A stretch of 64,000 nt of DNA from NCBI GenBank assembly GCA_977020255.1, contig CDROCS010002708.1, forward strand, positions 248,001 to 312,000, written 5' to 3'. Numbering within the stretch: the stretch's first letter is position 1; each line of letters begins with the position of its first letter. Shown piece after piece: positions 3,371 through 63,674 of this stretch. A program made the translations under genes and the position numbers. The notes under the pieces are model-generated. The model worked only from the letters and a program-made list of their open reading frames with translations, did not search any database and was not told where the DNA came from. This stretch comes from Obrimoposthia wandeli. Its lineage: Eukaryota.

Positions 3371-3580
3371 TTAACCGTTTGACAACAGTAACCATAAAAT
3401 ACATAAATGTCCACGGTTTCTCGTTGCTGAATCCTGGTATTGTATCTTGTTGAAAAATAATCTTCGTCCTTTTTGAACAGTCGAAACAAGCTTATGTGAA
3501 TAATACGTAGCAAGTGGTTCGAATACATGTATTATCCACTTTTTAACATAAATAGCTATCCAATGTTCTCATGGTAAATT
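3371..3580 (-). pseudogene. Adenain-like (C5) cysteine protease remnant, C-terminal half
   Basis: NLP*EHWIAIYV (catalytic His motif) and QYQDSATRNRGHLCILWLL (Q...CG motif, Cys changed to Arg). Parallels 61300-61628. Confidence 0.7.
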
Positions 3581-3589
3581 CAAATTAGA

Positions 3590-4310
3590 AATATTAATAA
3601 TGTAATCTCCACGTTGAAAAAATGGAATCATATCAATAGGATTTATAGGTTTCGCAATAATAGCTATTTCTTGAAAGTGTCACTGAACGCACATTTAAAT
3701 TATCAAATTGTGTTACATCTGTCGTTTAATTTCTTAGGAACTTTGTAGTTTTTTTAAATGAAGTTAAAACGAATTTGGATAATCTTACATCACGAAGTAT
3801 TTGATCCTTATTAAAAACTTGTGTACCCATACCCAAAGAGTATGTTATAAGTTTAGTTTCTCTAATAGGATAACAAGCATTGTTTATTTCTATTCCTATA
3901 CTATGTTCGATTAAAACAAATTGCTCAGTTTTAACTCTTTGGACATACAGTTTTGCATCGAAAATATCAAGAATAGGCTTTAGAACGTCTGCTTATCAAA
4001 GAAAATTTATATTTATTGTGTTTTAAACGAAGATGTACATTCCCACCGGGAATTTAATATTTATATTGTTTAAAGAAATTTAGTCTCATCGATCCACGCA
4101 TTTTGTGCGCTTTAGACTCTGCAATCTATTCATTGCGAGTTGCAACCGTTTAATCAAAACTAATTGTTGTCAAAATAGTATTTTAAGTATTAGTACTATA
4201 ATTCAATTTACTTTCAATCAAAGCTTCATGGGTATAGGAAGAATTCCCAACTTCAATTTTAATATTATTAAGAGTAACAATGGTATCATTAAATAAAGAA
4301 TTAAATAAGT
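3590..4310 (-). pseudogene. Polinton major capsid protein (hexon-like) remnant
   Basis: SLFNDTIVTLNNIKIEVGNSSYTHEALIESKLNYS...IPGGNVHLRLKHN...DIFDAKLYVQRVK...NACYPIRETKLITYSL, with stops and frameshifts. Matches Maverick MCP motifs (SLFSQIDVxLN...YxxxAYIETLLNY; AxYPIxR). Confidence 0.8.
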
Positions 4311-5389
4311 AATTTTAGATCCCCACATATCCTATATATGTTTTAACTATTTATTTTCTTTTTTTACATGTTTCTTTCATTTGCATATTTTTGTATGTAA
4401 TGAATTATAATCAGTTTTATTTTTTTAATTTCATAATTTTTTGTATTTTATTTTAATATATATATATATTTATAAACATTGTTTTTTAATCAGTGTCTTT
4501 ATTTTAGAATGGATCCTCTTATGTACAAACATGTTATTATCCGGAAAGTATTTCAAAAGGAAAACCACATAATATATTAAATGGGCTCAAAGTTTACGAG
4601 TATGAATATTGTGAAAATTTCCAAAGTCGAAAATAAATATTTTATTGAAATTTTAACAACATGTTGATCAATTACAAAATATTTGGGAATTTTACATATC
4701 TTATTATGTAAATAAAGTTAATTCTTTTGAAAGTGATCCTTGTTTGGCTTTTAGAGATGACCTTGATTTTTTAATTGCTCCACTTTTAGATGAGGAAATA
4801 TGGAATATTTCTCTACCGCTTAAGGGATATTATGCTGATGCCAATAAAAAATTAAACCTCTTTGGACTTTGAAGAAAACTAATATGGTGTTTTATATTTG
4901 ATATATTTTAATAAATGCATTGAAATTTATTTTGTGTATTATTTTATTTTCATAAATATATGTATACTTTCAGTGAAGCTAATATGATGTTTCATATTTT
5001 TAATAATATTAATGAAATTAAATTTTATTTCGTTTTTTTTTTCTCATAAAAAATATATAACTCTGACCTACTTATTTTGGTGTCATTATAACAGGTATTA
5101 AAATCTAGTCAATTTTTCATACAAAATTATTATCTAAAATAATCTACGTTAATTTGATGGGGTCAATATGAATTCCTGTGGTCTTTAATCACTTTTAAGC
5201 AGGAGGTCGGATGTGAAATTCAAACACACATGCATGAAATTTTTCTCCACACACCTGTACGATTTTAAAGGATAGTGGTATCCCTCCGGGAATGGGGATG
5301 GATTAGACCAGATACACATGTACGAAATTTCACTCCACATACATGCACGATTTTAAAGGACAGGGGTAAATGAAATTTTTTTTTACTGA

Positions 5390-5526
5390 TAGTTTTCTGT
5401 TAAAGCAACTTTATATTCTTGTATTTTTATAGAATTTTCCCAATCGATAATTAAGCTACTGGTCTCATTATCCGGCTGAGTCTTTGGACATCCGTTACTT
5501 GGTAAAACCATATGCAAAGATTTCAT
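5390..5526 (-). pseudogene. Penton (minor capsid protein) N-terminus
   Basis: MKSLHMVLPSNGCPKTQPDNETSSLIIDWENSIKIQEYKVALTE resembles the LPSN...PDNxxxxF...YEVAL penton start. Its ATG (5526-5524) overlaps the integrase stop (ATGA). Confidence 0.75.
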
Positions 5527-5879
5527 ATTAAATTAGATGCTGATATCCAAGTTGGATCTGAATAACCATGCCATTTAATAAAGTATTGTTTATGTTCACC
5601 AGTACCTTAGATCTAAATATTTTTTTAAATACGGAAAACGTTAGGTTTATTTGATATTACTTGTAGTTCATGCTCGTAAAATTTACCCTGAATGATATTA
5701 TTGTCAGCATCTTTAATAGTATACATTATTGGTTTACTCTTTTGATCAATTTTACTTATACAAAATATTTCATCGCTTCCATTCCAATTAAAATTATTAA
5801 TAAATGTAGTAGAGATAATTTTAAAAATTCGAAGATATTCGCCTATCTTATATTTTTTTGTGTATTCCTGCTTATTCAA
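5523..5879 (-). pseudogene. Polinton retroviral-like integrase, C-terminal region with chromodomain
   Basis: YKIGEYLRIFK...NWSDEIFCISKIDQKSKPIMYTIKDADNNIIQGKFYEHELQ, then after a frameshift TGEHKQYFIKWHGYSDPTWISASNL-stop (chromodomain). Confidence 0.85.
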
Positions 5880-6281
5880 ATTTCCTTAGAATTTAATCAA
5901 TTCAGAAACATTTTGGAATTTTATATACTTACATATGTTTATGAGGGACATTCTTTTAATTCTGAAATTCTGAAGCTGATCTTAGTCTTGTTTTAGACAT
6001 TAAATATTTCAAACAGTTTAATGTATACTATGTTTATGGCGATGAAAAATTTGGACTTTAAATAAAGATTTTATGTTGTTTTAATTAAAATTTTGATTTA
6101 ATAAATGTATTACAATTAAATTTTGTCTTGTGTTTTGTTATTTCTCTTTAAAAACATATATTAGTTGGACCTACATTGTTTTGTCATAAAAACGTTGGAA
6201 TTAAATTTTAGATTTTACATGTTCAAAAAATAGGCAAAAATTATTTTTATATCATACACGCAAATACACACTTCACTCCTG

Positions 6282-6305
6282 ACACACACACACACACACA
6301 CACAC
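6282..6305. repeat. (AC)n microsatellite, about 12 units
   Basis: Directly visible. Confidence 0.95.
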
Positions 6306-6949
6306 GAGGATAGAGGGGATGTGGATGGATCATACTAAACAGATCATACCACTCCCGTGAGATGACCTTGGTCAGGATAAATCTATATGTAATGTCCCTG
6401 TTTTTGGTATAAGTATTCTAAAAAAAACAAACATCACAATTTATTGAATGCAACGACTTCCAAAAAAGATTTAAAATATTGTTTTCCGAGAACCAGTTTC
6501 AGTGAAACAGTTTATTGATTTCGAAATGCAGTGGCATTAATCGCAGCTAACATACATAGTTTATGATTTTGTCTTGATTTTATGATTATGATTAAGTGAC
6601 GAAGGAGAAGCAAAAATTTAACCGGAACCCATCGAAAAACCTTCAGAAACTAGGAAATCTTTTGTTTAATTAAATCTCAACACAACACTAGACTAAAATA
6701 AATTCAAGCATTGACAGCATTTTTCTAATATTTTTCTCACGGTTCTGAATCTAAAGTGAAACATAAATAAAATTGATAACTCTTTCAAAAATTGAAACAT
6801 GCTAAGAATTGTATGTCAATATATGTGGGATGTAAAATATTATTTTGCTACCGGTTTTGATCAATAATAATATAAGTAGATTGTTGCTTTTTAATCTAAA
6901 TTGGACATATTACTCAATTCATTATGCGTCCATAAAAAGACTTTTTCTA

Positions 6950-7440
6950 TGACAAAAGATTTTTCCCTAATCCAAATTTCCATGACGAAAAGCCAAATGT
7001 AAACACGTGCGACCACTGCAAATACGAAACCTTCTGTATTTTGTAACAATACGTACCTCTCCAGTTGGAATATTTCAGCTCCGTTGTCAATGAGAAAATT
7101 AATAATTGATAAATGACCTTTAAATACAGCAAAATTAGAGATTTAGTATATTTGACTTGATTTATCGGGGATGTCATATACATGGGTTATCATTGATTTT
7201 ATAAGTATTTTCATTGATTTTACTGAATTTTCATTTAATTTCATAAGTGTTTTAAATTAGCTATGTATTGAGATATGAGATTATATAACCAGTTATGTAA
7301 TTATATATATGTATATATACTGATAGAAGTATATAGTATCATTCCTGCCTCAACAACACAACTTCTGGGGTACCTTGAGCTCATTGTGATATTGGGGTAT
7401 GAACAATATTATATGCATTATTCATGTCTATATTTGGTCA
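6950..7440 (-). pseudogene. Ankyrin-repeat-like gene remnant within the Maverick relic
   Basis: Minus-strand AVFKGHLSIINFLIDNGAEI (about 7070-7130) and NNAYNIVHTPISQ*AQGTPEVVLL (about 7345-7425) resemble ankyrin consensus. Confidence 0.5.
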
Positions 7441-7699
7441 AAAACACACAAATATCACTCAAAATGATTAAAAATCATCGTCTTAAAATCGTGGATCCTG
7501 CCCCAGTTGGACCCTCCCTCCCCGTGGAGAGGAGGGTGCGTTTTACTGCAAAACATCATTGGGACAGTATGCACAATTTCAAGACTTGTGAAATGACGCA
7601 TACTGCCCCAACTGGACCACCATGGAATACCTTTTACTGCAAAGCATCAAAGCATCAAGACGCTAATGGTTACCGATGCAATACGTGACTGGTTAACAC

Positions 7700-10010
7700 G
7701 GATAATTTCTTCATTTTCATAACAATTGAGGTAGTCTTGATGTCTTAAATTAGTTTGTTTTAAAGAAATACCCTTAACTTTTAGTTTATATTGAAGTGAG
7801 TAACATTTTGGTTTTAAGAAAACCCATTCAATATAATCAGTACCCTCACTTTCATCTTTAAATCTTTCAAGTACAGCTTAAAGATTTTCTGAATACAAAG
7901 GATCTGTTTTAGGATAATTACCCGAAACTAAATAATCATCCTTTATCATTTCTTTTAGTAATTTATCTTTAGTAATATTTACAAATTCAGGGTTAAAAGA
8001 ATCTGTATCCACATCTACAATTCGAATACTACAATTAATCGTTTGCCTAAATCGTTCAAGCTCAACATATTGTAATTGATACATTCGTAATTTAAATAGA
8101 TCACGTACAGCTTGACTGATATTGGAAAGCCATTCAAAACATATTTCATGTTTCTGCATGAAACTAAATTTAATTCATAATTTATTTAAGTATGACGATT
8201 AACCCAGGGACTCTATACTAATTTTACAAACCGTTTGTCGTTATTACATAATCTAATATCAAGCTGCCTCTTAAAATTCTCAACCGTTTTACCGTAGAAG
8301 GAATTATTTTTTAGCTTATAAAATTCATATTCAAATTAAGTATATATCATTAAGCATACCTTCCATCATATAGTCTTTAGTATTAGTGCAATATAGTTTT
8401 GTCTACATTGTGATACCTAAATAATATTTTTCATCTGTAAGACTATCTGGAAATTCACATTTTGGAGGAAATCTATCTTTATTCAGCTTAGATTCACAAG
8501 AAAAATATTCATAGGAAAAAACACCTTTACTAAATATTAAATCAGTACTAAAATATCTTAATGTATATGATGAACTTGAGAGATAACTACCCAATATTTC
8601 AAGACTAGTTGTAAAAAGATACGAATCTAAGAAATTTTATGAGCCAGATGATGATTCTATTTTGAGAGCCATGAATTTTTCACTAGATTTGAGTACGATT
8701 GAATAACTTTTATCTTTTAATTGTGCAAATTTTTAAACATAATGAATATCATATCCCATTAAGTTGCGAAAACGTTTTGGTAATATAGGTATCTTACCGA
8801 ATCTACGACATAAATTAAATTTAATACATGCTGCGCCCAAGAATGCACTTGAAATTATAACAAAGGTAACATATACGACTATCTCGAATAGCTAACCGAT
8901 TTTAATTTGTCATTATTAGTAGTGCTTTCAAATTATTTCTCCAAAACGTGGAATAATATTATTAAGAATTTCCGTTAATTTATCAATAAAGTCAGCAGCA
9001 CAATCTAAACCAAAATATGAAAAGTATTCTATTGTATCTGTAACATTATTTTTCAACAACATTCTAACAGCAATGTGAGTATGTATATGTTTAAATGTCA
9101 CATAAGTTTCTAACACTCAAAATCAGCTCAAACAACAAAGGAAGGTTGAACTGACTTTGACCAAACTGTGAATTTACAATATTTATAATCTGGCATAGTG
9201 AATAATGTTGTAGTGTCAGTATTAAAATTACGATATGTTCTATGTTTATAATAAGTAACTCCAGTTCAAAAACCAAAAATACATTTAGGACACCAATGAA
9301 GTCGCAAACCATAGCTATGACAATTAAATAATATATTTAAATTAAAAACACCTCAAAAATGATAAGTGCCACCATCTTCAATCAAAAGTAAATTAACAAT
9401 TTTGTTACATTCCCTTAATTTTGTTCGATAAATTATACTAACATCAAAAATTTTCACATATTTATTTTTAATTTAGGAATACTTAAAAACTGTAATTGCT
9501 ATTTGGTTATCACGTTCAAAATAAGGTATTGAGGCTAAGGGCATAGTACCTGGCTGACATTTTAACTCATTTAAATATTGATCGTAAGAAGTTAGTCGAT
9601 CTCTATTTCGAACTTCATTATACTTTAAAACACTAATGATAGCATAGAGAAAACACTTGTTATCACTGTTTTTCACATTGATTACTGGCTTTTTATTTTT
9701 TAATTTCAGGGGTTTTGGTATATATGAAGAACATTGGATAATTTAGTTAATTTAAAGGAAATTTGTAAGATTTTATGGATTGATCAACCACTTCTCAATT
9801 CCGAGTACTTTTCAATACAATCATTTAAATTTATGTTCTAATAACAGTAAAATCATCATCGAAAACAGCAACCTTGCAACTAATATGCCATCTTTTAAAT
9901 GGGTTTTCTATATTTACAAATTTAGCTTGAACACCAAATTGTGTTAAAAAAATTATTTTCAAACCTAAATTTCTTGAGTAAAGATTGTAATATTAGCCAT
10001 TTATTTAATT
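7700..10010 (-). pseudogene. Protein-primed DNA polymerase B (pPolB) remnant
   Basis: Ordered motifs: INVKNSDNKCFLYAI; FxxLMGYDIHY and FLDSYLF (exonuclease); KGVFSYEY; YKLKNNSFYGKTVEN (motif B); VDTDS (motif C); ERFKDE...LKPKCYS...KVKGI. Many stops and frameshifts. Confidence 0.92.
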
Positions 10011-50800: not shown

Positions 50801-51170
50801 TTATTATATACCGTAGGCACACATTTTGTTTTTATTATAATTATTTGTGTCTCATCAAAATAAAATACAAAATAAAATCAATTTTCATACCGAATTGATT
50901 AAGAATTTTGTGCCATATTAAATATATGTTATATTTTATTCTTTTTTGTCAATGCTGGGTCCAATGTCATAGTTCAGAGAGATACAAAAGAAAGTTTTAT
51001 CAATAAGTTTAAATGAAAATAGTAAAAATTAAAACTAGCTCAACCTTTTCATTCTGAAGCATTTTAAAAGCTTTACCAAATCTATATTTCTTAAATTAAT
51101 TGATTAATTAAAACAATCTTACATTTAAAAAAATTCCTAAAGTTTTACTATACCGAAAATAGTATTCAAC

Positions 51171-51257
51171 CTGAATCGCTCAACATTTTTTGTCTATTCA
51201 GCGTCAATGCCATCACGTGGTCCGACCAAACGGACCGTTTCTGCACGAATCCTTGCC
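51171..51257 (-). CDS. NDUFA10: NDUFA10 exon 2
   Basis: Follows a 42-nt in-frame intron (51258-51299, ctgactcAG acceptor). GQGFVQKRSVWSD corresponds to the conserved GQGVVLERSIFSD. Confidence 0.88.
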
Positions 51258-51299
51258 CTGAGTCAGGCAAATAACATACATTAACCAAAGTAATCCAAC

Positions 51300-51783
51300 C
51301 TGTATTATAGATGTTACACATTGCCTTGCACGTGTTAAAATATCGCCAAAGATAAATATGCTTTTGCAGTAAAAGCGGACGACCATTGTGAATTGGATCT
51401 TTGTCATTAAACAACATCTCCCTAGTATAAACTCGGGAATACGGTGGCAACATGTCATTATATTTGCGCAAATCAACAGGTGCTTTTCCTAGTGGAATCA
51501 CGTGCAAATCCTCTTCCGAAACATCATCCACATACAGCATTCCAAAATAGTCCGCTAACTTCTGAGCCAATTTTCCTTTTCCCGTTCCTACATTACCTTC
51601 CACTGCGATATGTCTGGAATTTTGATCCATCATACCTTGTATGGGATGCGTATGAATATGGGCAGGCCAGTTATAAAAATCAAACAGGTACTTAGGTTTA
51701 ACTTTGTTAGCTACTTCAGGAGTAAACTTATTTTTAAGTGTTCTTACTATAAGAACGCGAGATACATACACATTCCGAAACAT
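51300..51783 (-). CDS. NDUFA10: NADH dehydrogenase 1 alpha subcomplex subunit 10 (dNK fold), exon 1
   Basis: ATG at 51783, Arg-rich presequence, IAVEGNVGTGKGKLA P-loop, LQKHIYLWRY. Donor GTtgga at 51299. Confidence 0.9.
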
Positions 51784-54700
51784 TTTCTAAAATATTAGAA
51801 AAACATTAAATAAAATGTAAATAAATATGATATAAAAGTATTTTTATAAACCTATGTTTAGAGTCGTATTAATATACAGATACATATTCTTAAAAATAAA
51901 ATATATTCCAAACGATTTCCTATAAGAAGGGGAATCAAGAAAATTCCTTTAAATTTCATACTTTAAGTAGAATGTTTTTTATATAAGCAATCTATATATA
52001 TTAAAATTTAGTTGCTTAACGTTTAATTATATATTATCTTTTGGAAATGATATTAATAGTATTTGCATGTATAATGTCAAAATTTTCTAATTCATTATTT
52101 AATATTTTTAGGAATATCGAGATTTCTTTAGAAGTTTATTTGATTGAAATCTAGTTTCCATAGTATACTTATTGCATTATTTTAGTATTAATATTAATTT
52201 TCACATTTTTGTGGTGTGTTAGCTTATTTTTATGTTACTTTTAAAAATAAAAGTATTGACTTGTTAAGAAAAATGTTAAACATTCGTTCAGCCATATGAA
52301 AAACTTTTATTAACGATTAAACAATATATTTTGGAGTTTGATGATATATCATGGAATATTTACTTCGTAAATTTTCTCAAAATTCTTACATTACATCTAT
52401 CAAAAAAGTCCTAATTGTATAACTATTGTTGAAATAATTAGGTTATAATGTAAATAGAATATAGTATATGAAACTTATATACAGTTGAGACCTCTTGAGT
52501 TTTACAACAATAACTTATAAAATCGGTTTAAAATCAAGGCAATGGATTTTATAGTCAAAAATTGCATTACTAAAACAACTAGTAAGACTGGATTTTTAAA
52601 AAATTCAATAGAATAATTTAAAAATTAATATTATTATTAAAGCAACGAAAAAATAGTTCTAAAAAAATATAAGTTAATAATGATTAGGGCTATCTAACAA
52701 TTATGAAAGTTCGATTAAATTTGTACAACACACAACACAACAATAGTTTTAGGGAATATGACGTTATCCTATATACAACTCCTTAACAAATCACAAAAAT
52801 AACCTTCAGAGACTAGGATAGGTAGTAAGCTGTAAGCCCTATCGCTACAAAACTCACGTTGGGGGCCTCCGTACAAGGATTCTAAGTTTTTAAAAAAATA
52901 ATATTAAACTGGTGTCCAAAATGAGGATATCTCATTGGACATAGCAGATTCAGATATAATATATAGATAAGTTGTTGAATAAGTAAGAAGAATAAAAGAA
53001 AAGTGAATTGAGAAAAAAGAATTAATTGAGAATAAGTTACATTGAGAAAAAGGATAACTGAGAATAAGTATAATAAGAATACAAGATAAATTGAGAATAA
53101 ATAAGCGAATAAAGGATTTATAGAGATATAATAAGTGAATTGAATAAGAAAATTGAATAGAGAATAACGGATAATTAAGTGAAATAATAAGTGAATATGT
53201 AAATTGATATAAGAGTTTGATATAAACGAAGAAATGCAGTATAGCGATGAACCGTATTATCTAACATATTATCAAACTGAGAATCAATACTTCCGAAAAG
53301 GACGAGGAAAACATAGAAAAGATTTTAGAATTGAAATTGTATAATTATTAAAATAAAATTAACTATAAATAGAGGACATAAAACCTTGAAATAAGGTTAA
53401 ATAGGAATGAATAAATTAATTTTTTTTTAAGTTAATGTAAAATTGAAATTGGTAAGATCGGAATAAGTTATGGACTTTGAGAGGTCGTGTGTAAGTATAT
53501 AAAAGAATTTAAATTATTAAGAAGGGCCCAAAAAAGATATAATTTGAAGAAGTATTCGCAACTGGTAAAAATCAATTAAGGATAGCAAAAGTGATTTAAT
53601 TTCTTGAGAACGATACAGCAGCAACCGTCTAGAGAACTAAAATGTAAAATTAATAGAAAAATTCCATTTACTAATTACTTACCAGGACTGCGAGCGAAGT
53701 GATTTAACTTCTTGAGAACGGGACAGCAGGCAACCGTTTAGAAAACTGAAGGTAGAATTAATTTAAAAATTCCATTTACTAATTAATTACCAGAACGGCG
53801 AGCGAAATTGATTCATTCTTAGGAATTTTGCATCAATTGAAAAACAAGTTATAAAAGCATCTGCGAGCAAAATTGATTCATTCTCAGGAATTTTGCATCA
53901 ATCGAAAACAAGTTATAACAGCATACATAACAGGAGAGTATAAAAAGAGAAAACAAAAAGCTCAAGAAAAAGATCTTAAAATCGTTGGAGGAACTACCCA
54001 GGCCAAAATTAGAAGATTGATCAGTGTTTGAATTGACCGACGTAAGACACGAAAACGACGTTAGAGGATTCAAGATAATTACTGATTATCCAGGAAGATT
54101 GGTCAGACCGAACAAGCGGGGACCACCAGACACCAGATACCATACACACACACCAGATATCTAACTAAGCGGATCTTTTGAGGACGGAAGCTTGTGACGA
54201 AGGAAACAACCGGACTACGAGTATCAATAACCGCAGATAAATCTAGGTAAGTAAATTAGAAACATTGAAAAAGAAAGCTACATACTTTGTGAGTTTAAAG
54301 TAAAAGAATGTTACATGCTTTGTCAGTTTAAAGTAAAAGAAAGTTATATACTTTATCAGATTAAAGTAAAAGAAATAAACATATTTTATCAATTGGAACT
54401 AGCAAACATTGAAAAAAATGTAAATTTATCCTAAAATAATTGGGGGTTTGACGAGTCAAAGTTAAATAGGAAACTAACAACTAGACAAGCACGTAAAATC
54501 CGATCTCTAACTTACTAGACAGAAAATTAAAATCGATACGTAAAGGGCATCCTCATTTGTGTGAAATTGAATAAAGTGTCATAGGATTAGTTGTCTGTAA
54601 TTTTTAGAAATATAGTTTAGTGTGAAATAAAGAATATATTTTTCCTACAAACAAGTAACGTTACCTTGAATTAACCCACCATAAATCAGAACGATATCAA

Positions 54701-55025
54701 CCCCATTGTACACCACACTACAACAAGGAAACATTGTAATACCTTGTGCACACGACTTTGTACACAATCCACCATACACTAGCACAAAAAACCTCCAGAC
54801 TTGAGACTAAATTAAGTAGGATAAAACCTAAATAGGCCACATACATCTCAGGGCCCTATTGCTACAAAACTCACGTTGGGGGCCTCCATAAGAGGATCTA
54901 TCTGAATCAAAGTATTTCAAATAGAAACCCCAACATTATTGCACAACTACCTGCATTTCCTCACAGTGCGCTTTACTTAAAAGAGCACACAGAACGAGGA
55001 CATCAGATTTGGTGTTTAATACATT

Positions 55026-55682
55026 TTGAATTATTATACAGACTTAACATGGAGTCCACTTAACACGCAACAAGAATCAAGCAATCTGAGTATAGAAGAA
55101 CTCGTGAAGCTGATTCCACAACCAAAGGAATATACAGAATCAGAAGAAGTTGAAGAGTTCCTGCCGAAGATTAGGTCATATTTTGAAATGATATCACTGG
55201 ATATCAGCCAAAGAAATATTCTGATTACAGCATTTATGACCGGGAAATGTCATGAAAAATATGACAAAACAGATGGCAAGAAGAATTATGAAGATAGGCT
55301 TAAAGAAGCATTTGACAAAAAGCTGGATTTAGTAGCATACCTATTCAATGCTTTGAAATACAAGACAGGTTATGATTCCGTCGACACCTTTATTCTGCGT
55401 ATCGAAAAGAATGTGGAAAATGTAATGCAACACAAGATTACGGCCTCCAAATTAACAGAATTCTTGCTAAAATTCTGTATCGATGATGAGTCAATGTCAG
55501 AAGAAATGAACCGAATCGAACTCACTGGTGGCATTTTGAAGATGAAAGCAAAGCCAAGCAACGAAGAAATGGAGACAGAACAAAAAGGACCTACTCCAAC
55601 AAAATTTACCAAGGATATGATGAAGAAATTAGAAGAAAAAATAAGAAGTCAAAAATTGAAAAGCCGATATTTCTTTAAATAA
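55026..55682 (+). pseudogene. Gag-like ORF of the Gypsy remnant
   Basis: 218-codon open frame, charged and helical, directly upstream of protease and RT pieces. The call rests on position rather than on a recognised motif. Confidence 0.55.
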
Positions 55683-56399
55683 TCGAACTTATACTGGAAT
55701 TGTGGCAAATTGAAGACCTGTTTATCAAAATCCAATGAACATGAAGAAAATTCGAGGAACAGCTCAGATAAGGTTTGAAAAGACAAAGAGAAACGAAAAC
55801 TATAAGTGACGACAATGTTATTGCTGCAGTGAGGTTGGACATATAAGACGAGAATGTCCTCACAATCATTGTTCATTCTGCTGACGAAATGGACATGCCA
55901 TCAACCAATACTACCGGAAACTTGATCAAGGTAATAAAGGATACGCAAAAATATGGCTATCAGCGAGATCAGCCACTACCAAATGGAAGTTTAGGACAAG
56001 AGCGAAGATACCAGCGAGATTATGTTCCAGTCCATCAGCTAAAAAATCAGCAGAGATACCGAGGATCTGACCAGAACAAGAAGCCAGTTGCTGTCATGGA
56101 TGACGACTACATGACTGTGGATAAACAGAATCACAGCCAGGCAAAATACAAGTTGGCTCCATCAAACAAGGAAATTATCGGAGCTCTGAATCTAATGTAA
56201 GTAGTTATGTAAATAATTTGAAGACAATTAAGTATGACTGTAATAAAGAATTTATGGATTGTGAGTTTGATTTAAATAGTTTAAATATTAATGTTTTATG
56301 TGATACTGAGAATGGTGAAAATATTAAAATAAATAATGATGAGGTAGATTTTATTGAAAATGATTTAGTTAATGATGTTTTTTTAATTAACAAAAAATA

Positions 56400-56760
56400 T
56401 GATTTAAGTTTTTTAACTGTTGGTTATGATAATAGCGATGGTAGAACGTTCATTAACATTGAGTTGAATAATATAAAAATAAGTTGTTTATTAGATACTG
56501 GTGCTACAGTAAGTGTAATAAGTAAAGATGTTTTAGATATAACTAATTGTAATATGAATAAGATTATGAATTAAAATAACGTTTCATGTGCTAATGGAAG
56601 TAGATTAGAAATATTACGTACATTAAGTATAGCAATAAAACACAAAAATAAAAACATATTTGGATTTTTCTATGTTGCAAAAGAAATTAAATCGTGCATA
56701 ATTTTAGGAATCGATATTTTGGAAAAGTTGAATTTTAAATTAGCCGACTTTGATCGTTTG
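56400..56760 (+). pseudogene. Retroviral-type aspartic protease remnant
   Basis: TFINIELNNIKISCLLDTGATVSVISK (DTG active site) followed by ILGIDIL. Confidence 0.85.
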
Positions 56761-56879
56761 AGTTGATGAAAGATTATTAAATGAAGTAAATAATTTAGAA
56801 AATAAATTTTGTTTGTCAGTAAGTCAAGATGATCGTTGGAAAACATTTTTGAAAACGTGTACCGAAAATATGAAGGAAG

Positions 56880-57233
56880 TCGTACCAATTTGTAAAGAAT
56901 TTAGAAATATATTTATGAAAGATAAATGGGACATATGAAAACCGGATGTACTAAAACATAGAATATTGACTGAATGTACTCCAATAAATATCAAACCTCG
57001 TCGACAACCAATGCATTATGAAACGAAGATACTGAAAATCTTGAAGAAAATGGAATAATATCTAAATGTGAATCACCGTTTCAAAAATTAATGACAATTA
57101 TCTTAAAAGATATGATTTGGACTGAAGCTTTAGTATATTTAGATGATATTTTAATATTTTCTAATTCTATAGAAGAACATAAAATAAGATTGCGAAAATT
57201 ATTTGGACGGATAGCAGAGTCAAGACTTAAGAA
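56880..57233 (+). pseudogene. Reverse transcriptase remnant (internally deleted)
   Basis: HRILTECTPINIKPRRQP and EALVYLDDILIFSNSIEEHKIRLRKLFGRI (YLDD). Confidence 0.88.
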
Positions 57234-57673
57234 AGGGCGTACGTTCAACGGTTACTCGTGCGGGACTTGTTATTGTTTGACTCAATGGATTAATATTTTC
57301 TCTGATTGTTTCTATTATAATTCATATTAGCAAATAGATTACTAACAAAACCTATATGTGTAATAGCTCTATTTTATTATTTTTATTATTCATTTTCCAT
57401 AAAATCATTATCAAAATATTGTTTATACTGCTTTGTTCTCAGAGACAAAGACGTCACATGGGAACCATGTGGACACTTAAACACATGTATTAAATGTTCA
57501 GAACGTATTATTTCATTTCCATATTGCAAGACATTTATTATTAGAAGAGTAAGAAATATCAGATTTCACGAGATAAAAAATTAACCAAAGAGATCACATG
57601 CGATCTAAAAATAGATTTTCAAATAGTATAAATAGAACAAACCTGTTTATAATAATCAGAAATATTACTTCAC

Positions 57674-58099
57674 AATATCAAATTAGTGAATATTAATTAT
57701 AAGAGATTGGTTGTAAGTGCCATTCAACACTAACCATTTCGGACTTCGAAGCCTCATCAGTATCGACTCAAGTGTGAAGGTTACACAATTATAATTTCCA
57801 AATCTGGTAACTTATTTTACATTTAAATATTAATATAATTTAGGAACATGCAGAATAATGGGTTGTAAAATCGTGCTGGATGAAACTACTCTTCCTTTTG
57901 ATATTAAAATCGAAAGAATCCAATCAATCAGTATCAATACTAATGTAGAAAACCAGTAAATCTAAGCAAGCTGAGCAAAATTATGGGATCAGATGCGTTT
58001 TACGATCCAGAAATCTTCCCAGGAGTTCGATACGTCAAGTACAATCCACTATGTGTGAACATTTTTGCAAGCGGGAATACTTGGATACTTGGTGTATAA
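57674..58099 (+). pseudogene. Divergent TATA-binding-protein-like gene with a 37-nt intron
   Basis: Spliced translation ..YRLKCEGYTIIISKSG|TCRIMGCK...IQSISINTNVEKPVNLSKL..AFYDPEIFPGVRYVKYNPLCVNIFASGNTWILGV-stop. Repeat 2 aligns by eye to TBP IQNIVGSCDVKFPIRLEGL..YEPELFPGLIYR..P..LLIFVSGK. Intron 57807-57843, stop at 57731, frameshift near 57952. Confidence 0.8.
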
Positions 58100-58379
58100 A
58101 CTTTAAGTTATGAATATCTGATTTTATGTATTTTGTTTAATATACATATTCACACTTGTGTTATTTATTTCCTTAACAAAGACAAAAAGTTAGAAAAAAT
58201 TGCAAATAGTTGCAAAAAGTTGCAATTTTACTAAAAATAGATTTATTTGTGTTATTTCCTAAACAAAGACATCACATGACATTACTTGAAAATAGTTGCA
58301 AAAAGTTGCAAAACGTTGCAATGTTACTAAATAAGATTTATTTTTGTTTTCTGGGTTATGGACAATATTTTATCACAAA

Positions 58380-58629: not shown

Positions 58630-58983
58630 TATATAAGAGTAAAACCGTCAACTCTGAATTGAAAAATGGAGAAAATCACATCACTGGCAGCAGCAATATC
58701 ATCAACAGCAGCAACATTACCAACAGCAGCAACATTACTACCAACAACAACAGCGATGAGAAGAGAAAAAACTATTGATGAAGTCAAAATAGAAGAAGTT
58801 ATTATAGAGAAGACAATTATTGAAGAAGATAATAAACGATTAGATTTTCTTTAAATGCTTTGGCTTTTATGGAACCCACAATAGCTCATGCTTCTAGTAG
58901 GGAGATGAACCACATGACCCATCTTTTTGATACATTGTTCAATGATAGATTTACTCAACTTAATGTAGAAAAATTCAACAAAA

Positions 58984-59399
58984 ATGAGTGAAATTTCAGT
59001 AAATCAATTATATATTGGTAATTATCGAGATGCTTTTGATGAAACTATACTTTTGAAATCCGAATTCACTCATGTAATCAAAACATCTATAGTGGATAAG
59101 ATATCTTATAAGAAATTAAAGTATACTTATGTTTTTGTAAACTCAAAATTAAGAGAAATAATAATTACATATTATAAACAGACTAATAATATATTTAAAG
59201 AAACTATCAAAACTGGTGGTAAGATTTTAGTGTGTGATCATTATGGTAGTTTACATGATGCTTGCATTGTTATTGCATTTTATCTCCTTCAATGGGTGTT
59301 AGAGCTGCTTTCAATATTTTTAAATCTAAACGGAGTATTGCTGCTCTTAATGAAGTTATGCTTAATCAAATACGTATTTTTAATCGTTATGATATATAA
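58984..59399 (+). pseudogene. Atypical dual-specificity phosphatase-fold gene, catalytic motif degenerate, one frameshift
   Basis: LYIGNYRDAFD...THVI, GGKILVCDHYGSLHDACIVIAFYL in place of VLVHCxxGxSRS, then shifted MGVRAAFNIFKSKRSIAALNEVMLNQI (DSP C-terminal helix). Confidence 0.75.
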
Positions 59400-59843
59400 A
59401 TTTTATTCGTCTTTATTAGTCAGTGTCTTTGTTAATCAGTAGCCAATCAGATTTTACTTGTATAGTATATAAGCAGATTACGTTTTACTCTTTCTTTATT
59501 ATTAGTATGTCTACTCCCAATTATTTCAAGCAAGATGCTGGCAAGGCAGTGAAGAGCTACATCTCAAAAAATGTTATAGAAGATGTCCTGAAACTCATTG
59601 ATGCATCAGATCTACCCTGGAGGAGCTTGTGAGAAGAATGGTTCACAACAAGGCATTCGATCGTCTCATTCTGGGGTACAATCAGAAGAAAGAAGATTAT
59701 GTACAGAAAGAAGAGTACGCGAAGAAAAAAAGCTTTTTCTGGGAGAAGAGTTTTTTACTGTTTGTTGTTGGATGTATTCTAATAAAATATTTTAAATAGC
59801 TTAGTCTTATAAACATTATCTCAACAATCTAATATTTTTCAAT

Positions 59844-60476
59844 ATGAACTTTAAAAATAATTCAGATTTTCAGATTGTAGGTCTTATTGGTAGTGGGAAA
59901 AAATGCTGCAAAATAATAAATACTTTATTTTTAAGTTTAATAAGATATATTTGCATCAGGGAGGAGATGGAGAAGCAGGTTTAACCAGTAAAGAGTTTAA
60001 GAAAATCAAAAATATAAAAGTCATTAATGGATTTGATGATAATTGGTCTGAGCGATTACAGCGACATGATGTCATTGTTATTGATGATTTGTATCAAGAA
60101 ACAAATAAAGAGAATGATTTTTAAAATTTATTCACTAAAATAGCACGAAATCGTGAAGTAACTGTTTTTTCATCACGCAAAATCTATTTAATCAGGGTGA
60201 GAATCATAGAACTCGTAATTTAAATGTTCATTACCTTGTTCTTTTCAAAAATACACGTTATCAGACGGTTGTTGATTTTGTTTCAAGACAAGCTTACCCA
60301 AATAATATAATTTTTTTAATTGATTCATTTCATGATGCAATTACTATTCTTCATGAATACAATTTTATTGATTTACTCAAGATTGTCCCGATGACTTAAG
60401 AGTTAGAACTGATATATTCAATCCATCAGGAATTACTATCTATAAACAATCAAAGAAACTAGTTTCTCGAAGTTGA
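59844..60476 (+). pseudogene. A32/FtsK-like genome-packaging ATPase
   Basis: Walker A GLIGSGK, Walker B VIVIDD, ARNR...FITQNLF..RNLNVHYLVLFKN, SRQAYP. Several frameshifts and stops. Confidence 0.9.
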
Positions 60477-60543
60477 ATTTTAAAAAGGAAACTATTAAAC
60501 CTGATGTTAAAAATTGATTAAATCGATTTTAAGTGCAAGGAAA

Positions 60544-60770
60544 ATGGTCGCTCAAAAATCAAATAAGAAAAGTCTTGTTAGTAAGAAATCTAGGAGTAAC
60601 GCCTATTTCAGTTCTCTTATGCGTGCTCCTGCTATTCGCCGCCCAACTATTCTTAAATCATTTCCTACTTTAGTAATAGATGATTTACGTAATATGGTAC
60701 AGAAAATAGTTTCTGGTAAAGTAACTGTTAAGGCTAAAATGAACCCTATCTTATTGAAAGGATCAGATTT
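60544..60770 (+). pseudogene. Small basic Maverick virion protein (pX/core-like), truncated
   Basis: Lys/Arg-rich N-terminus, then LMRAPAIRRPTILKS..LVIDDLRNMVQKIVSGKV, similar to the conserved ORF that follows the ATPase in Mavericks. Confidence 0.5.
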
Positions 60771-60789
60771 CTGGAGATATGCAACTTCC

Positions 60790-61228
60790 AAACTTTGTTT
60801 TAATTGCTTTCCATAACATTTCTACCAATAGAGGTGAATCTAAAATTAAGGTTTCTCAATTTAGACATATGAATGTGAGTTCAATCAAACTTTCACGAAA
60901 TATCGATTATCAAGAAACGTATTCAAATGACTTTGAAAATAATAATTATGTGTTTTCTTAGATGCAATTTTTAATTAGAAATCTTGGTCATTTGGATAAG
61001 AATGCTAATGTTAGTATTTCAATGACTGATTTTAAGGATAAGTATACACTGTTCACATTTGTTGTTACTCCGGATTTTGATATTAATCAAGCTTAAATTC
61101 CAAAACAGGGGAATTTGAAAGTAGAAATCAAGTTTACAAAAGCACTTGAACATTTTACTAATATCATTATCTATGGAGTATTTGATTCTGAGGTTCAAAT
61201 TACCAAGGGAGGAACAGTACTAGTATAA
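60790..61228 (+). pseudogene. Major capsid protein C-terminal part
   Basis: FRHMNVSSI...ISMTDFKDKYTLFTFVVTPD...GNLKVEIKFTKAL...IIYGVFDSEVQI-stop (YTLFAFDLTPD...GNLRLE motif). Confidence 0.88.
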
Positions 61229-61299
61229 ACAGAATGAAAACAACAAGAATATATAAATGAAGTAAGTCAGCTTGAATTAATCAATTAATATATAAATTA

Positions 61300-61628
61300 G
61301 TTCGATCGAGATAATAAAAAGCGGAAGAAAACTACTCAGTTCGCGTTTCAATGGAGTCTACTGTCTCAATCGTATCCCCTCATTGACTCGTCTAGGTGGA
61401 TATGTAATCAATACACATTCATCTAATTTGCGTAGTGAACATTGGATTGCAATTAATGTTTAAAAAAAGAAATATTTGTTTTTGACTCCTATGATATTAC
61501 CCTTCTAAATTAATTTCTACAGTACTTGGCTCTGGAAAGAAAGTACATTTTAGTAAGAAACATTATCAAAATGTTTTAACACAGTCATGTGGACAACTTT
61601 GTATATTATGGTTAAATCATAAACAATA
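61300..61628 (+). pseudogene. Adenain-like maturation protease
   Basis: FNGVY...YVINTHSSNLRSEHWIAI...YQNVLTQSCGQLCILWL. Confidence 0.88.
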
Positions 61629-61654: not shown

Positions 61655-62054
61655 TATGTTTATTTTATTGATTTTGAAGCTATCATTGCATCAAATAATG
61701 AATTTATTATGAAGGAATTATGTATAATTAATGTGGATTACAATTTTTCCCAATCATTATGTTTTTAAAATGCAACCTATATGAAATATGATGATTAGAA
61801 AATCAAGAAAAATAAATAGATATCTTATTAAGCATTACCATCGACTAAAACTAGTTGATGGGAATAGTTATTTCAAGATAAAAGAAATAACTGAAGAAAT
61901 AAAACATTGTTGTGATGTATTCAAATCAATTTTCTTTGTTTTGGATGAATATAATGGAGCTAAAATAAAGACAATAAATACATTTTCCCCTGGATTTAGA
62001 GTTATAAATTACTCTAAAAAGTTTAAACAACTTTTTTACTGTAAGGTTAAGTAA
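61655..62054 (+). pseudogene. DEDD/DnaQ-like exonuclease-fold ORF often seen in Mavericks
   Basis: LFIDFEA....FIMKELCII and NRYLIKHYHRL...G resemble the IDxE..F..KEL / N.YL...YH.L.W..G pattern. Confidence 0.55.
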
Positions 62055-62133
62055 AATTGCCTTAAGCAGTAGCAATGATAAACGCAAGTGGATTGTTAAA
62101 AATCGATCAATTGCCTATGGACACCTTATTTAA
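62053..62133 (+). pseudogene. pPolB C-terminal tail
   Basis: KIALSSSNDKRKWIVKNRSIAYGHLI-stop. Confidence 0.75.
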
Positions 62134-63364
62134 TACCCGGACGATATTGTATGATATTTTTATATGTGTGTATATATTTTTACTAACCGTTTCTCTCTCT
62201 CCTTTGTGATTTTAATATGTTTAAAAAGTATTAGTATTTAATCTTAATTTAGAAATGATAAAACACTTGATTAGTAATAACATAAAGTTGCAAGTTTTTA
62301 CAATATAGAAGCAGTACGTGGCCGTCTTTGTTACACACACACGAACATTTAAATATATTTGTCAAATTTTATAATACTTATTTTTATGAATAGATAGTTT
62401 TATGAAATTTAATTAAATTTAGGAAATTTGATAATACTTATAAGTAGATATTTTAATTAAATTTAGTTTAATTTTATAAGTAGATAGTACGTTTAGCTAC
62501 TTTTAATAGTAAGTAGATAAATTTAAAAAATTAATTTTATATATGACATTTAAAATTAATTTTCTATATCCCATCCCTGTTTTATGTAGCCATAATGAGG
62601 ACTTTGGGTTCGTTCTCATGTGTGTGCGTGTGTTTGAGGACCTCATCGCCAGTTGTCATTTGGTATGATGAATGGCTTGCCATTTGATAACCAGCCAATG
62701 AAGCCCGGGATCTCTTCTACTTCTAGAGCCTCCCGGAGCATCAAGCCCTCAGCGAGATAGTACTTTTCAGCTAGTGTGCACTTGCTTTCCATTAATTCGT
62801 TTAGTAATATTTGGCGTGTCTCTTCTATTTTTCAAAATAATGAATTGAAACTAAAATATTTATCTTATATACTCCTGGATTAATTAATTGTATTGATGCA
62901 GTAAAACAAATTATCTATTAATTAACAATGGATAATATAAAATTTCGAATTAAATAAAATAAACATGATATATAATAACCTAGATATGACCTAATCATAT
63001 TTATATTATACTTCATTTATTTAAATGACTTTTCTTTAAATAATCTAATTATTAAATTGATGTCTTTGTGATGAATAGTTCCTTTGTTACACACATTTTG
63101 TTTAAATAATCTAATTATGAAATGGATGTATTTAAATGAAACGTATCTATGATGTCTTTATAATGAATAATTCCTTTGTTACACACATAGAAATAACCTA
63201 GATGTAGTATACACACGTATGCGAGTTGAGGGAGTACACACACATATAAGTTAAGCTTGAAGGAGAACATATACACACACGAGATACATTTTGGTGAAAA
63301 CCGCATGTTCATACAACCTTTAGATAAAAAGATATATGGTTTTAAAGTATGTTACTAAAAATAG

Positions 63365-63674
63365 AATATGAGTCATCGATTAGTCATAGAATGTGTCATC
63401 GATGAGTCATACCCCGTGCGAGAGTGAGTCATATCTTTGTCCTGAAAGATGCACATCCCATTATCTCATGTGACCTTGACATACTTTTTGACCTCATGAT
63501 GACCTTAACTTGTCCTCATACCCCCATCCGGTGAGGGTTTTGTTCCCTGAGGTTTCCCATACACCTACTTATAAGCTCTCACTTTTTTTCATTTCAATCT
63601 CTGATTTTTGAAATATTTAATATGGTAAGAAAATTATATTTTTTTATTCTTCATTAATTTTTAAAATTTTTCAG
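63365..63674 (+). promoter_or_regulatory. Promoter-like block: clustered TGAGTCA and TGACCT motifs, TATA-like box, then a 50-nt GT-AG intron
   Basis: TGAGTCA three times plus variants at 63369-63432, TGACCT three times at about 63470-63506, TATAAG at about 63570, GTAAGA donor at 63625 and tttttcAG acceptor at 63674. Confidence 0.35.

Follow-up and report, generated by a model that had tools for sequence, protein, structure and literature searches.

The beta- and gammaherpesviruses encode a TBP of their own (vTBP; KSHV ORF24, HCMV UL87), and ORF24, which has a polar DNA face, reads TATTWAA late boxes according to the available part of PMC12529657. ORF24 is large and built of several domains; it makes direct contact with Pol II, is without the TFIIB acids and depends on five other viral factors. 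A viral TBP fold is likewise found in the NCLDV TBPs and in poxvirus VITF-3, which serve a viral RNA polymerase. NCLDV TBPs are mostly paired with a viral TFIIB, and C.L3.2 is only about 40% conserved in the viral TBPs, most of which are accompanied by their own TFIIB (PMC7221094, available part). The same part of that paper ties L5.1 to DNA binding, C.L3.2 and C.L3.4 to TFIIB, and the basic patch of the N-lobe helix H2 to TFIIA, TAF1, Brf and Mot1.

Mavericks, Polintons and adintoviruses carry pPolB, an rve integrase, an A32 ATPase, adenain, major and minor capsid proteins, TIRs and a 6-bp TSD. Vertebrate Mavericks are given eight intronless ORFs and no TBP in the accessible part of PMC8097293, and the word TATA does not occur in the accessible parts of PMC8097293, PMC10748475 and PMC11161782. 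Sporadic TBPs are reported in mirusvirus-related elements (PMC10675990, available part), and the legend of Fig. 5 of Starrett et al. (PMC8502044, available part) bears the label 'TBP' for viruses with an adintovirus-like PolB; this may or may not be the family described below or the second type found on contig L206. The searched portion of the Starrett supplementary data held no TBP or TATA match. Given the figure label in that part of the paper, a Maverick-borne TBP is not wholly new; no description of a shortened TBP family or of its ATAAAC box was found in the literature searched.

The gene described here, referred to as mini-TBP, belongs to the known kind 'viral TBP for late transcription', as a variant of it. 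With cellular TBP and TLF (PF00352) the protein shares a two-lobe saddle (Z 13–14, rmsd about 2.5 in the model), a YEPELFP stirrup and three of the four kinking Phe residues. Unlike them, it is about 30 residues shorter than the core, is modelled without helix H1 or a full H2 in lobe 1, has a polar DNA face and no N-terminal extension, is element-borne and forms a separate clade. A viral TBP with a polar DNA face and a TATA-variant late box recalls the herpesvirus vTBPs, and by analogy the two may work alike. In contrast to ORF24, mini-TBP measures about 145–170 residues, keeps the TFIIB acids and has no known partner; being the TBP core alone, it lacks the Pol II-binding N-terminal domain, extended CTD and vTA partners that mark the herpesvirus proteins. 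It resembles the NCLDV TBPs and VITF-3 in fold (BFVD matches at E 2e-8 and weaker). No RNA polymerase or TFIIB was found in mini-TBP elements, and mini-TBP, with no TFIIB match among 54 other ORFs, is not an NCLDV-type orthogonal TBP–TFIIB system. Compared with vertebrate Mavericks, the present elements are distinguished by the regular presence of a TBP gene, interrupted by an intron in some families, as well as of an SSB-fold gene and of a box common to several genes.

The window, that is the whole 64,000-nt stretch of Obrimoposthia wandeli DNA analysed, contains one broken copy of the gene on the forward strand, assigned to family A. A canonical TATA box, TATAAATA, lies at 57627–57634, 35 nt upstream of the start position of the family, and may act as an early promoter; at this position a canonical TATA is present in 28/30 family-A copies and a YATAAACR box in 0/30. 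Exon 1 (57662–57806), encoding most of lobe 1, has lost its start codon and contains an in-frame stop at 57731–57733. The exon is 145 nt long in 29/30 family-A copies, and 25/30 have an ATG at the position equivalent to 57662. Exon 2 (57844–58190, end approximate; PF00352, tblastn) encodes the end of lobe 1 and the whole of lobe 2 with its YDPEIFP stirrup, and is damaged by a frameshift between 57944 and 57959 and by a premature stop at 58097–58099. Of the four pieces into which the window gene falls, only 57944–58096 matched PF00352, with 27.7 bits against a cut-off of 22.9; a tblastn match extends to 58162. With the lowest mean identity of the set (0.88 to the other 29 family-A copies), a lost start codon, a stop, a frameshift and a premature stop, the window copy is a dead fossil.

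The exons are separated by a candidate 37-nt GT–AG intron in phase 1 (57807–57843, forward strand), recognized by sequence comparison, which splits the Gly codon of SKSG|TCRIMG (...TIIISKS / TCRIMG...), with the GT at 57807 and the AG ending at 57843. Among the 30 family-A copies the donor GT is kept in 28, the acceptor AG in 25 and both in 23, at intron lengths of 37–39 nt. In the intronless sister family B (L044) the same junction is crossed in one 144-aa frame, and the same intron position recurs in family C (L042 and L051, and L043 with a decayed acceptor) and on the metagenome contig L126. Judged from these alignments, the intron is genuine gene structure. Among the rows listed for contigs of four sequencing runs from one sample, none showed a joint at the intron, a result that carries no weight on expression. 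An earlier note on this DNA had placed the intron at exactly these boundaries and had called the copy pseudogenised, devoid of an N-terminal extension and co-oriented with a packaging ATPase 1.7 kb away; the boundaries recur in the family copies, the lesions account for the decay, the protein is the TBP core alone and an ATPase match (59835–60452) lies downstream on the same strand. Its span for the gene, 57674–58099, has to be replaced by a start near 57662 and an end beyond 58099. Both TBP repeats were said to be readable once the intron is removed; the TBP match in lobe 2 agrees with this, but the string given as repeat 2 is not one DNA frame, owing to the shift between 57944 and 57959.

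Around the gene, the element is heavily reduced. Upstream lies an IAP gene remnant (57232–57581, forward strand) that keeps a C-terminal RING finger (zf-C3HC4_3, E 4e-7; the BIR is present in sister copy L016), most of the gene having been deleted at the 57460/57464 junction. Downstream, all on the forward strand, follow a decayed dual-specificity phosphatase-like gene (58836–59439; DSPc E 6e-5, below cut-off), a YATAAACR box TATAAACA at 59808–59815, 36 nt upstream of the ATPase ATG, and a broken A32-like packaging ATPase (59844–60452; tblastn E 1e-60; relative L089 matches Pox_A32). A second YATAAACR box (60441–60448) sits at the end of the ATPase gene, ahead of a small conserved basic gene (60445–60753), which position and recall suggest may have a virion role. 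This gene is cut by a deletion that also removes the integrase, the minor capsid gene and most of the major capsid gene, whose 3' part remains at 60758–61225. A further box (61224–61231) precedes a decayed adenain-like maturation protease (61323–61617; relative L139 matches Peptidase_C5). The box CATAAACA at 61618–61625 is 38 nt upstream of the ATG of a decayed conserved gene with a DxE motif (61656–62050), which we take to be exonuclease-like and whose relatives have no Pfam match. A C-terminal scrap of the protein-primed DNA polymerase B (pPolB; 62026–62127, E 6e-6), like the preceding parts on the forward strand, is followed by an interrupted right TIR (62266–63569), of which the pieces 62266–62486 and 63244–63410 match, in reverse, the left ends of four sister copies; it ends in an AGTAG-type terminus near 63569. 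The window contains no left TIR. The window element is thus left with neither an integrase nor a minor capsid gene, and with no more than the 3' part of the major capsid gene, a scrap of the polymerase and a remnant of the IAP gene.

Within a deep lineage of Mavericks/Polintons, mini-TBP belongs to the regular gene content. When the 1.35-Gb genome was searched at the DNA level, 3,340 candidates emerged, of which 40 were scored and 30 fetched as family-A copies; the 39 other scored family-A copies were 87–90% identical. The gene recurs in at least four Maverick families of this genome. Core Maverick genes lay beside it in 10/10 TBP-first loci read at 20 kb, and it was present in 6/6 loci fetched by pPolB or A32 ATPase searches blind to TBP. 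In the window-type order (A) the genes run SSB, IAP, TBP, phosphatase, ATPase, small gene, integrase, capsids, protease; in orders B and D pPolB stands head-to-head with TBP, followed by the ATPase onward, and order C is a fourth. On C1219, a deleted family-A element retains a TIR with an AGTAG end on either side, flanked by a 6-bp target duplication and enclosing SSB, IAP, TBP, phosphatase and ATPase, and TIRs with 6-bp duplications were found in 3/4 family-D elements. The hallmarks pPolB and rve integrase were detected by Pfam in sister elements; ATPase, major and minor capsid and protease are also present, the capsid names resting on similarity among these elements and gene order (the MCP has no Pfam match). 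Endonuclease_7, sought inside pPolB as the HNH/EndoVII domain of the pPolB2 Polintons of PMC10748475, scored E 4e-4 and 8e-4, below cut-off. Searches with pPolB, A32, outgroup ATPase and MCP found no TBP-less Maverick family in this genome that could serve as a control; wherever the point could be judged, the loci were of TBP-bearing types (6/6 in the pPolB and A32 set above; 5/6 where 1.5-kb flanks were read), six MCP loci being too short to tell.

Beyond this genome, 43 of 50 candidates were homologous to the unbroken 144-aa relative at E ≤ 1e-3, and 136 representatives, cellular TBPs among them, matched it at E ≤ 1e-10; an Atlas search with mini-TBP led to TBP clusters, whose taxa, based on one to a few records, were left aside. 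A metagenome scan confirmed 133 loci, of which the best 80 were analysed together with one from IMG/VR. Of these 81, a core Polinton gene accompanied the TBP in 40 and any element gene in 63; among the 18 of at least 5 kb the figures were 15/18 and 17/18, the odd one (L161) carrying a canonical-type TBP outside the mini-TBP family. Scans of viral contigs with TBP, MCP and ATPase queries returned nothing except L161. Linkage to the element, which the earlier note had drawn from position only and had proposed to follow up by a genome-wide search for ATPase, MCP and pPolB neighbours within TIRs, is now established by TIRs with 6-bp duplications, by the 10/10 and 6/6 loci and by the 17/18 public loci, where such neighbours were found consistently.

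Selection was estimated from 39 pairs at 70–97% identity among 63 ORFs; the median dN/dS was 0.195 and the maximum 0.49, and by these ratios mini-TBP is under purifying selection. In the TBP tree, whose bootstrap is not fully settled, a branch with 100/99 support has the mini-TBP family to itself on one side, while host TBP and the host TLF-like gene fall outside it, as do archaeal-type TBPs and the TBP of L206; the phylogenetic comparison that had been proposed thus separates the family from the host genes. In the ATPase tree a branch with 91/91 support sets apart the ATPases of elements with mini-TBP, in three deep subgroups, a pattern that fits a single old capture. One family member, P0121, has an apparently duplicated TBP lobe (three lobes, 219 aa).

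The fold was modelled on the unbroken 144-aa relative P0001 (AF2, 38 sequences), which matches PF00352 with 63.8 bits (cut-off 22.9), only lobe 2 scoring, as in the window piece. In the model (pLDDT 94) all 144/144 residues align to yeast TBP 66–238 (Z 13.6, rmsd 2.5); the top hits are all TBPs (Z 13.6–13.8), the next fold having Z 6.8. The predicted structure is a two-lobe pseudo-symmetric saddle with a complete lobe 2 and a lobe 1 in which the strands are present but helix H1 and a full H2 are not. The proposal of a TBP fold is accordingly borne out twice, by the PF00352 score of the window piece and by the whole saddle predicted for its unbroken relative.

Residues were counted over 84 members less than 90% identical to each other. 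The L5.1 Phe is kept in 84/84 and 82/84 in the two lobes and the stirrup Phe in 83/84. The C.L3.2 and C.L3.4 stirrup acids (each acidic in 83/84, with 79 E and 4 D at one position and E throughout at the other) are host-like, 99% being kept against about 40% in viral TBPs with their own TFIIB (the latter from the available part of PMC7221094). The position of the fourth kinking Phe aligns with Pro in 80/84, the lobe-1 alignment to cellular TBP being uncertain there, and at six other positions of the DNA face a new residue has become fixed, polar in all but one case (N in 71, R in 81, M in 82, S in 74, T in 77 and N in 82 of the 84 members). In yeast TBP numbering we take the replacements to be V71→N, F99→P, V122→R, T124→M, N159→S, V161→T and L205→N. 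The canonical hydrophobic DNA face with all four kinking Phe is therefore not what mini-TBP has. The linker across helix H2 is 19–20 residues long in 51/84 members compared with 32 in a cellular TBP; in a second subgroup it measures 27–31 residues and H2 is near full length. The N-lobe H2 with its basic patch, as in canonical TBP, is lacking according to the model and the linker of the window's subgroup. The short inter-repeat linker remarked on in the earlier note is real and corresponds to the loss of the lobe-1 helix H2; a second shortening of lobe 1 lies between its Phe and strand 1. Mini-TBP is a member of the TBP superfamily and not a canonical eukaryotic TBP.

Upstream regions of the metagenome loci were scanned over 90 nt ahead of each gene against 100 dinucleotide shuffles, after collapsing upstream regions more than 80% alike and proteins more than 90% alike; the first ATG of each frame was taken as the start codon, by which some windows are misplaced. 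A motif, [TC]ATAAAC[AG] (YATAAACR), recurs ahead of the genes. ATAAAC precedes the ATPase in 26/26 cases (shuffle mean 2.0, max 6), MCP in 10/11, the small gene in 16/19, the minor capsid gene in 9/13, the protease in 4/5 and the integrase in 10/16, in all 75/90 core virion and integrase genes, as well as 10/13 PLA2-like and 18/26 exonuclease-like genes. The counts are low for the pre-MCP ORF (1/6), SSB (3/20) and pPolB (1/6). Ahead of mini-TBP itself ATAAAC occurs in 7/65, within the shuffle range, and strict YATAAACR in 0/65; a canonical TATA is found there in 27/65 (shuffle mean 6.1, max 12), leaving 38/65 without. The distance from box to ATG has its mode at 30–39 nt, and the base before ATAAAC (n = 101) is T in 62, C in 32, A in 5 and G in 2.

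As a control, an ATPase-first scan of GTDB yielded seven Polinton-like contigs. On the two with mini-TBP the box stood ahead of 8/11 genes (11/11 at 150 nt), and on the five without it ahead of 0/22; these five are mostly partial, so that TBP absence is not proven in the partial ones, three lie on long branches, and the whole amounts to one phylogenetic contrast. The suggestion that the lineage encodes its own TBP to redirect host Pol II to viral promoters draws support from this distribution of the box.

We think it probable that mini-TBP is an early-made, late-promoter-specific TBP that uses host TFIIB and Pol II. Host TBP would first transcribe the mini-TBP gene from its ordinary TATA box, presumably early. 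The product is then predicted to bind YATAAACR about 30–45 nt ahead of the packaging, capsid, protease and integrase genes and to bend the DNA, and its conserved C-terminal stirrup to recruit host TFIIB and Pol II. Because the lobe-1 surface used by Mot1, TFIIA, TAF1 and Brf is reduced, the protein might escape eviction and TFIID control; since H2 is near full length in the second subgroup, escape from Mot1 by deletion would be limited to the window's subgroup. The outcome would be an early-to-late switch by one small protein. We take the second kinking Phe pair, at positions 7/8, to lie in lobe 1, and the residue-to-base mapping of TBP on TATA variants is likewise assumed; if this holds, the unusual C of the box falls where mini-TBP has lost the Phe and gained the Arg. 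That pair acts between positions 7 and 8 (PMC1935006, available part). Several observations weigh against the proposed switch. Host TBP has been crystallized on a variant with C at position 7 (PDB entry 1QN3, by its title) and so is able to bind such boxes; the steric clash of cellular TBP at C:G pairs is avoided by Hoogsteen pairing (PMC4402545, available part), so that ATAAAC would be usable by host TBP but non-ideal. Moreover, since the mini-TBP elements lie on one side of the ATPase branch (91/91), gene and box may be one inherited event rather than a repeated co-occurrence. The distribution of the box within 90 nt is also imperfect: it is wanting ahead of 5/6 pre-MCP ORFs and 6/16 integrase genes and stands ahead of 3/20 SSB and 1/6 pPolB genes, and 38/65 mini-TBP genes are without a canonical TATA.

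The same crystal structure, of wild-type TBP on the C(-25) variant (1QN3), would suit a decoy, in which host TBP reads ATAAAC as a weak TATA variant while mini-TBP titrates TFIIB or competes at host promoters and damps host transcription; the TFIIB-binding acids are the best kept surface, and one kinking Phe is lost. A decoy seems unlikely to us, however: the DNA face is fixed at new residues rather than degraded, a C precedes ATAAAC in 32/101, far from consensus, and the box is absent both from the five contigs without mini-TBP and from the promoter of mini-TBP itself. It is decidedly unlikely that the box serves the gene before it as a 3'-end or poly(A) signal, or merely reflects conserved peptides such as YKQ, with mini-TBP binding something else, for example the TIRs in replication. 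Many boxes do lie at, often inside, the 3' end of the preceding gene, the ATPase C-terminus is a conserved YKQ and mini-TBP often adjoins the SSB-fold gene, yet A precedes ATAAAC in only 5/101, so that the motif is not AATAAA; the boxes fall in several reading frames and also in non-coding DNA, preceding the ATPase (26/26) whatever lies upstream; and their spacing to the next ATG peaks at 30–39 nt.

Mini-TBP might instead read the box but require a partner, encoded by the element or by a helper virus, the two making up a closed TBP/TFIIB-like pair of the kind seen in giant viruses and poxviruses. Most viral TBPs have their own TFIIB (PMC7221094, available part), a different Polinton contig (L206) bears a TBP and TFIIB pair, and several element ORFs belong to no family. 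TFIIB matches were nevertheless 0/54 among the other ORFs from the long contigs and the window, with a library that detected the TFIIB of L206 although a very divergent TFIIB could be missed; the commonest neighbour of no family is predicted to have a T7 gp2.5-like SSB fold (Z 8.3); the stirrup acids are of the host type; and the intron in several families implies nuclear Pol II transcription. A required viral partner is thus very improbable. That the gene is a host TBP/TLF paralogue or retrocopy, recently captured or merely lying beside Maverick debris, has next to no probability left: the intron and the density of Maverick debris in this genome speak for it, but the 100/99 branch separates the family from host TBP and the TLF-like gene, it occupies a fixed place inside elements bounded by TIRs and TSDs, and it occurs in Polinton contigs of many metagenomes. 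The bounded placement and the separate clade refute that origin.

Returning to the late-promoter-specific TBP, we incline, if only slightly, to the wider view that a widespread animal-associated Polinton lineage runs a temporal cascade with a 145–170-aa TBP re-specified for YATAAACR and plugged into host TFIIB and Pol II, one subgroup having shed the surface for host regulators; mini-TBP would then be perhaps the smallest viral transcription switch yet seen. The Maverick sources, in the parts available, describe no promoter or transcription factor, and a factor-and-box pair makes the timing of virion genes testable with one protein and an 8-bp site. The pair argues for Mavericks behaving as viruses with early and late phases, and offers TBP biology a natural experiment on which surfaces are dispensable and how TATA specificity is rewritten. 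If the reading is true, mini-TBP is a TBP whose specificity has been altered in nature, and the late genes of viruses with an undescribed infection cycle would be recognizable by the box. Thousands of element copies may have spread TBP genes and ATAAAC boxes over the genome of this host.

The seven Polinton-like contigs (L201–L207) lie within bacterial MAGs of GTDB and are most likely mis-binned eukaryotic virus sequence. On one of them, L206, a different TBP of canonical length (4714–5828; PF00352, 66 bits) is directly followed by a TFIIB-like gene (PF00382 and a zinc ribbon), the pair sitting among MCP, protease, integrase and ATPase genes. The L206 TBP forms a long branch outside the mini-TBP family and no ATAAAC boxes precede the L206 genes; here a Polinton has probably acquired basal transcription factors a second time, independently. 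The host itself has a TBP gene in two inverted copies (C238), an intronless TLF/TRF2-like gene in two copies and several Brf/TFIIB-like genes (L034 and L035 on C60 and C1092; L031/L032 on C238; L208–L215); its TFIIB candidate is spread over separate exons. The presence of a TLF-like gene suggests that the host is an animal.

A conserved 110–130-aa gene stands beside mini-TBP (L089:1788–2135, L070:301–696, L061:7856–8242 and relatives) and is absent from the window copy by deletion. This neighbour (orfX/orfY) is predicted to fold as a T7 gp2.5/Enc34-type SSB (pLDDT 93; Z 8.3, tied top rows) and gave only Atlas matches under 0.9; it had been considered as a TFIIB-like partner and was rejected on its SSB fold. 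Accessory genes in mini-TBP elements (L132, L140, L147, L153, L106) encode C2H2 zinc-finger, KilA-N/DUF3627, PLA2-like and RING proteins and a ubiquitin-conjugating enzyme, and the C2H2 zinc-finger gene could be a further regulator.

The Maverick load of this genome is very heavy, with elements often nested within one another; first-look searches gave about 27,000 candidates each for ATPase and MCP, 24,442 for pPolB and 19,768 for TBP, which are unscored and are not copy numbers. In the window, a decayed Gypsy-type LTR retrotransposon fragment (52860–57230) abuts and replaces the left part of the Maverick, with a gag-like ORF (55020–55679), an aspartyl protease (56125–56571) and an RT-like scrap (57022–57327). 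A second decayed Maverick occupies 3377–9908 on the minus strand, with remnants of protease, MCP, integrase and pPolB. Between 26630 and 40714 lies a 14-kb element whose long inverted arms surround satellite arrays, one of 28 copies of a 179-bp unit and others of 134/370 bp. Its arms contain a repeat of 52 bp resembling the termini of family-D Mavericks, and the element may be a non-coding Maverick derivative. At 51169–51786 on the minus strand, a deoxynucleoside-kinase domain (dNK, E 3e-4) is encoded by host exon(s) that we presume to be NDUFA10-like.
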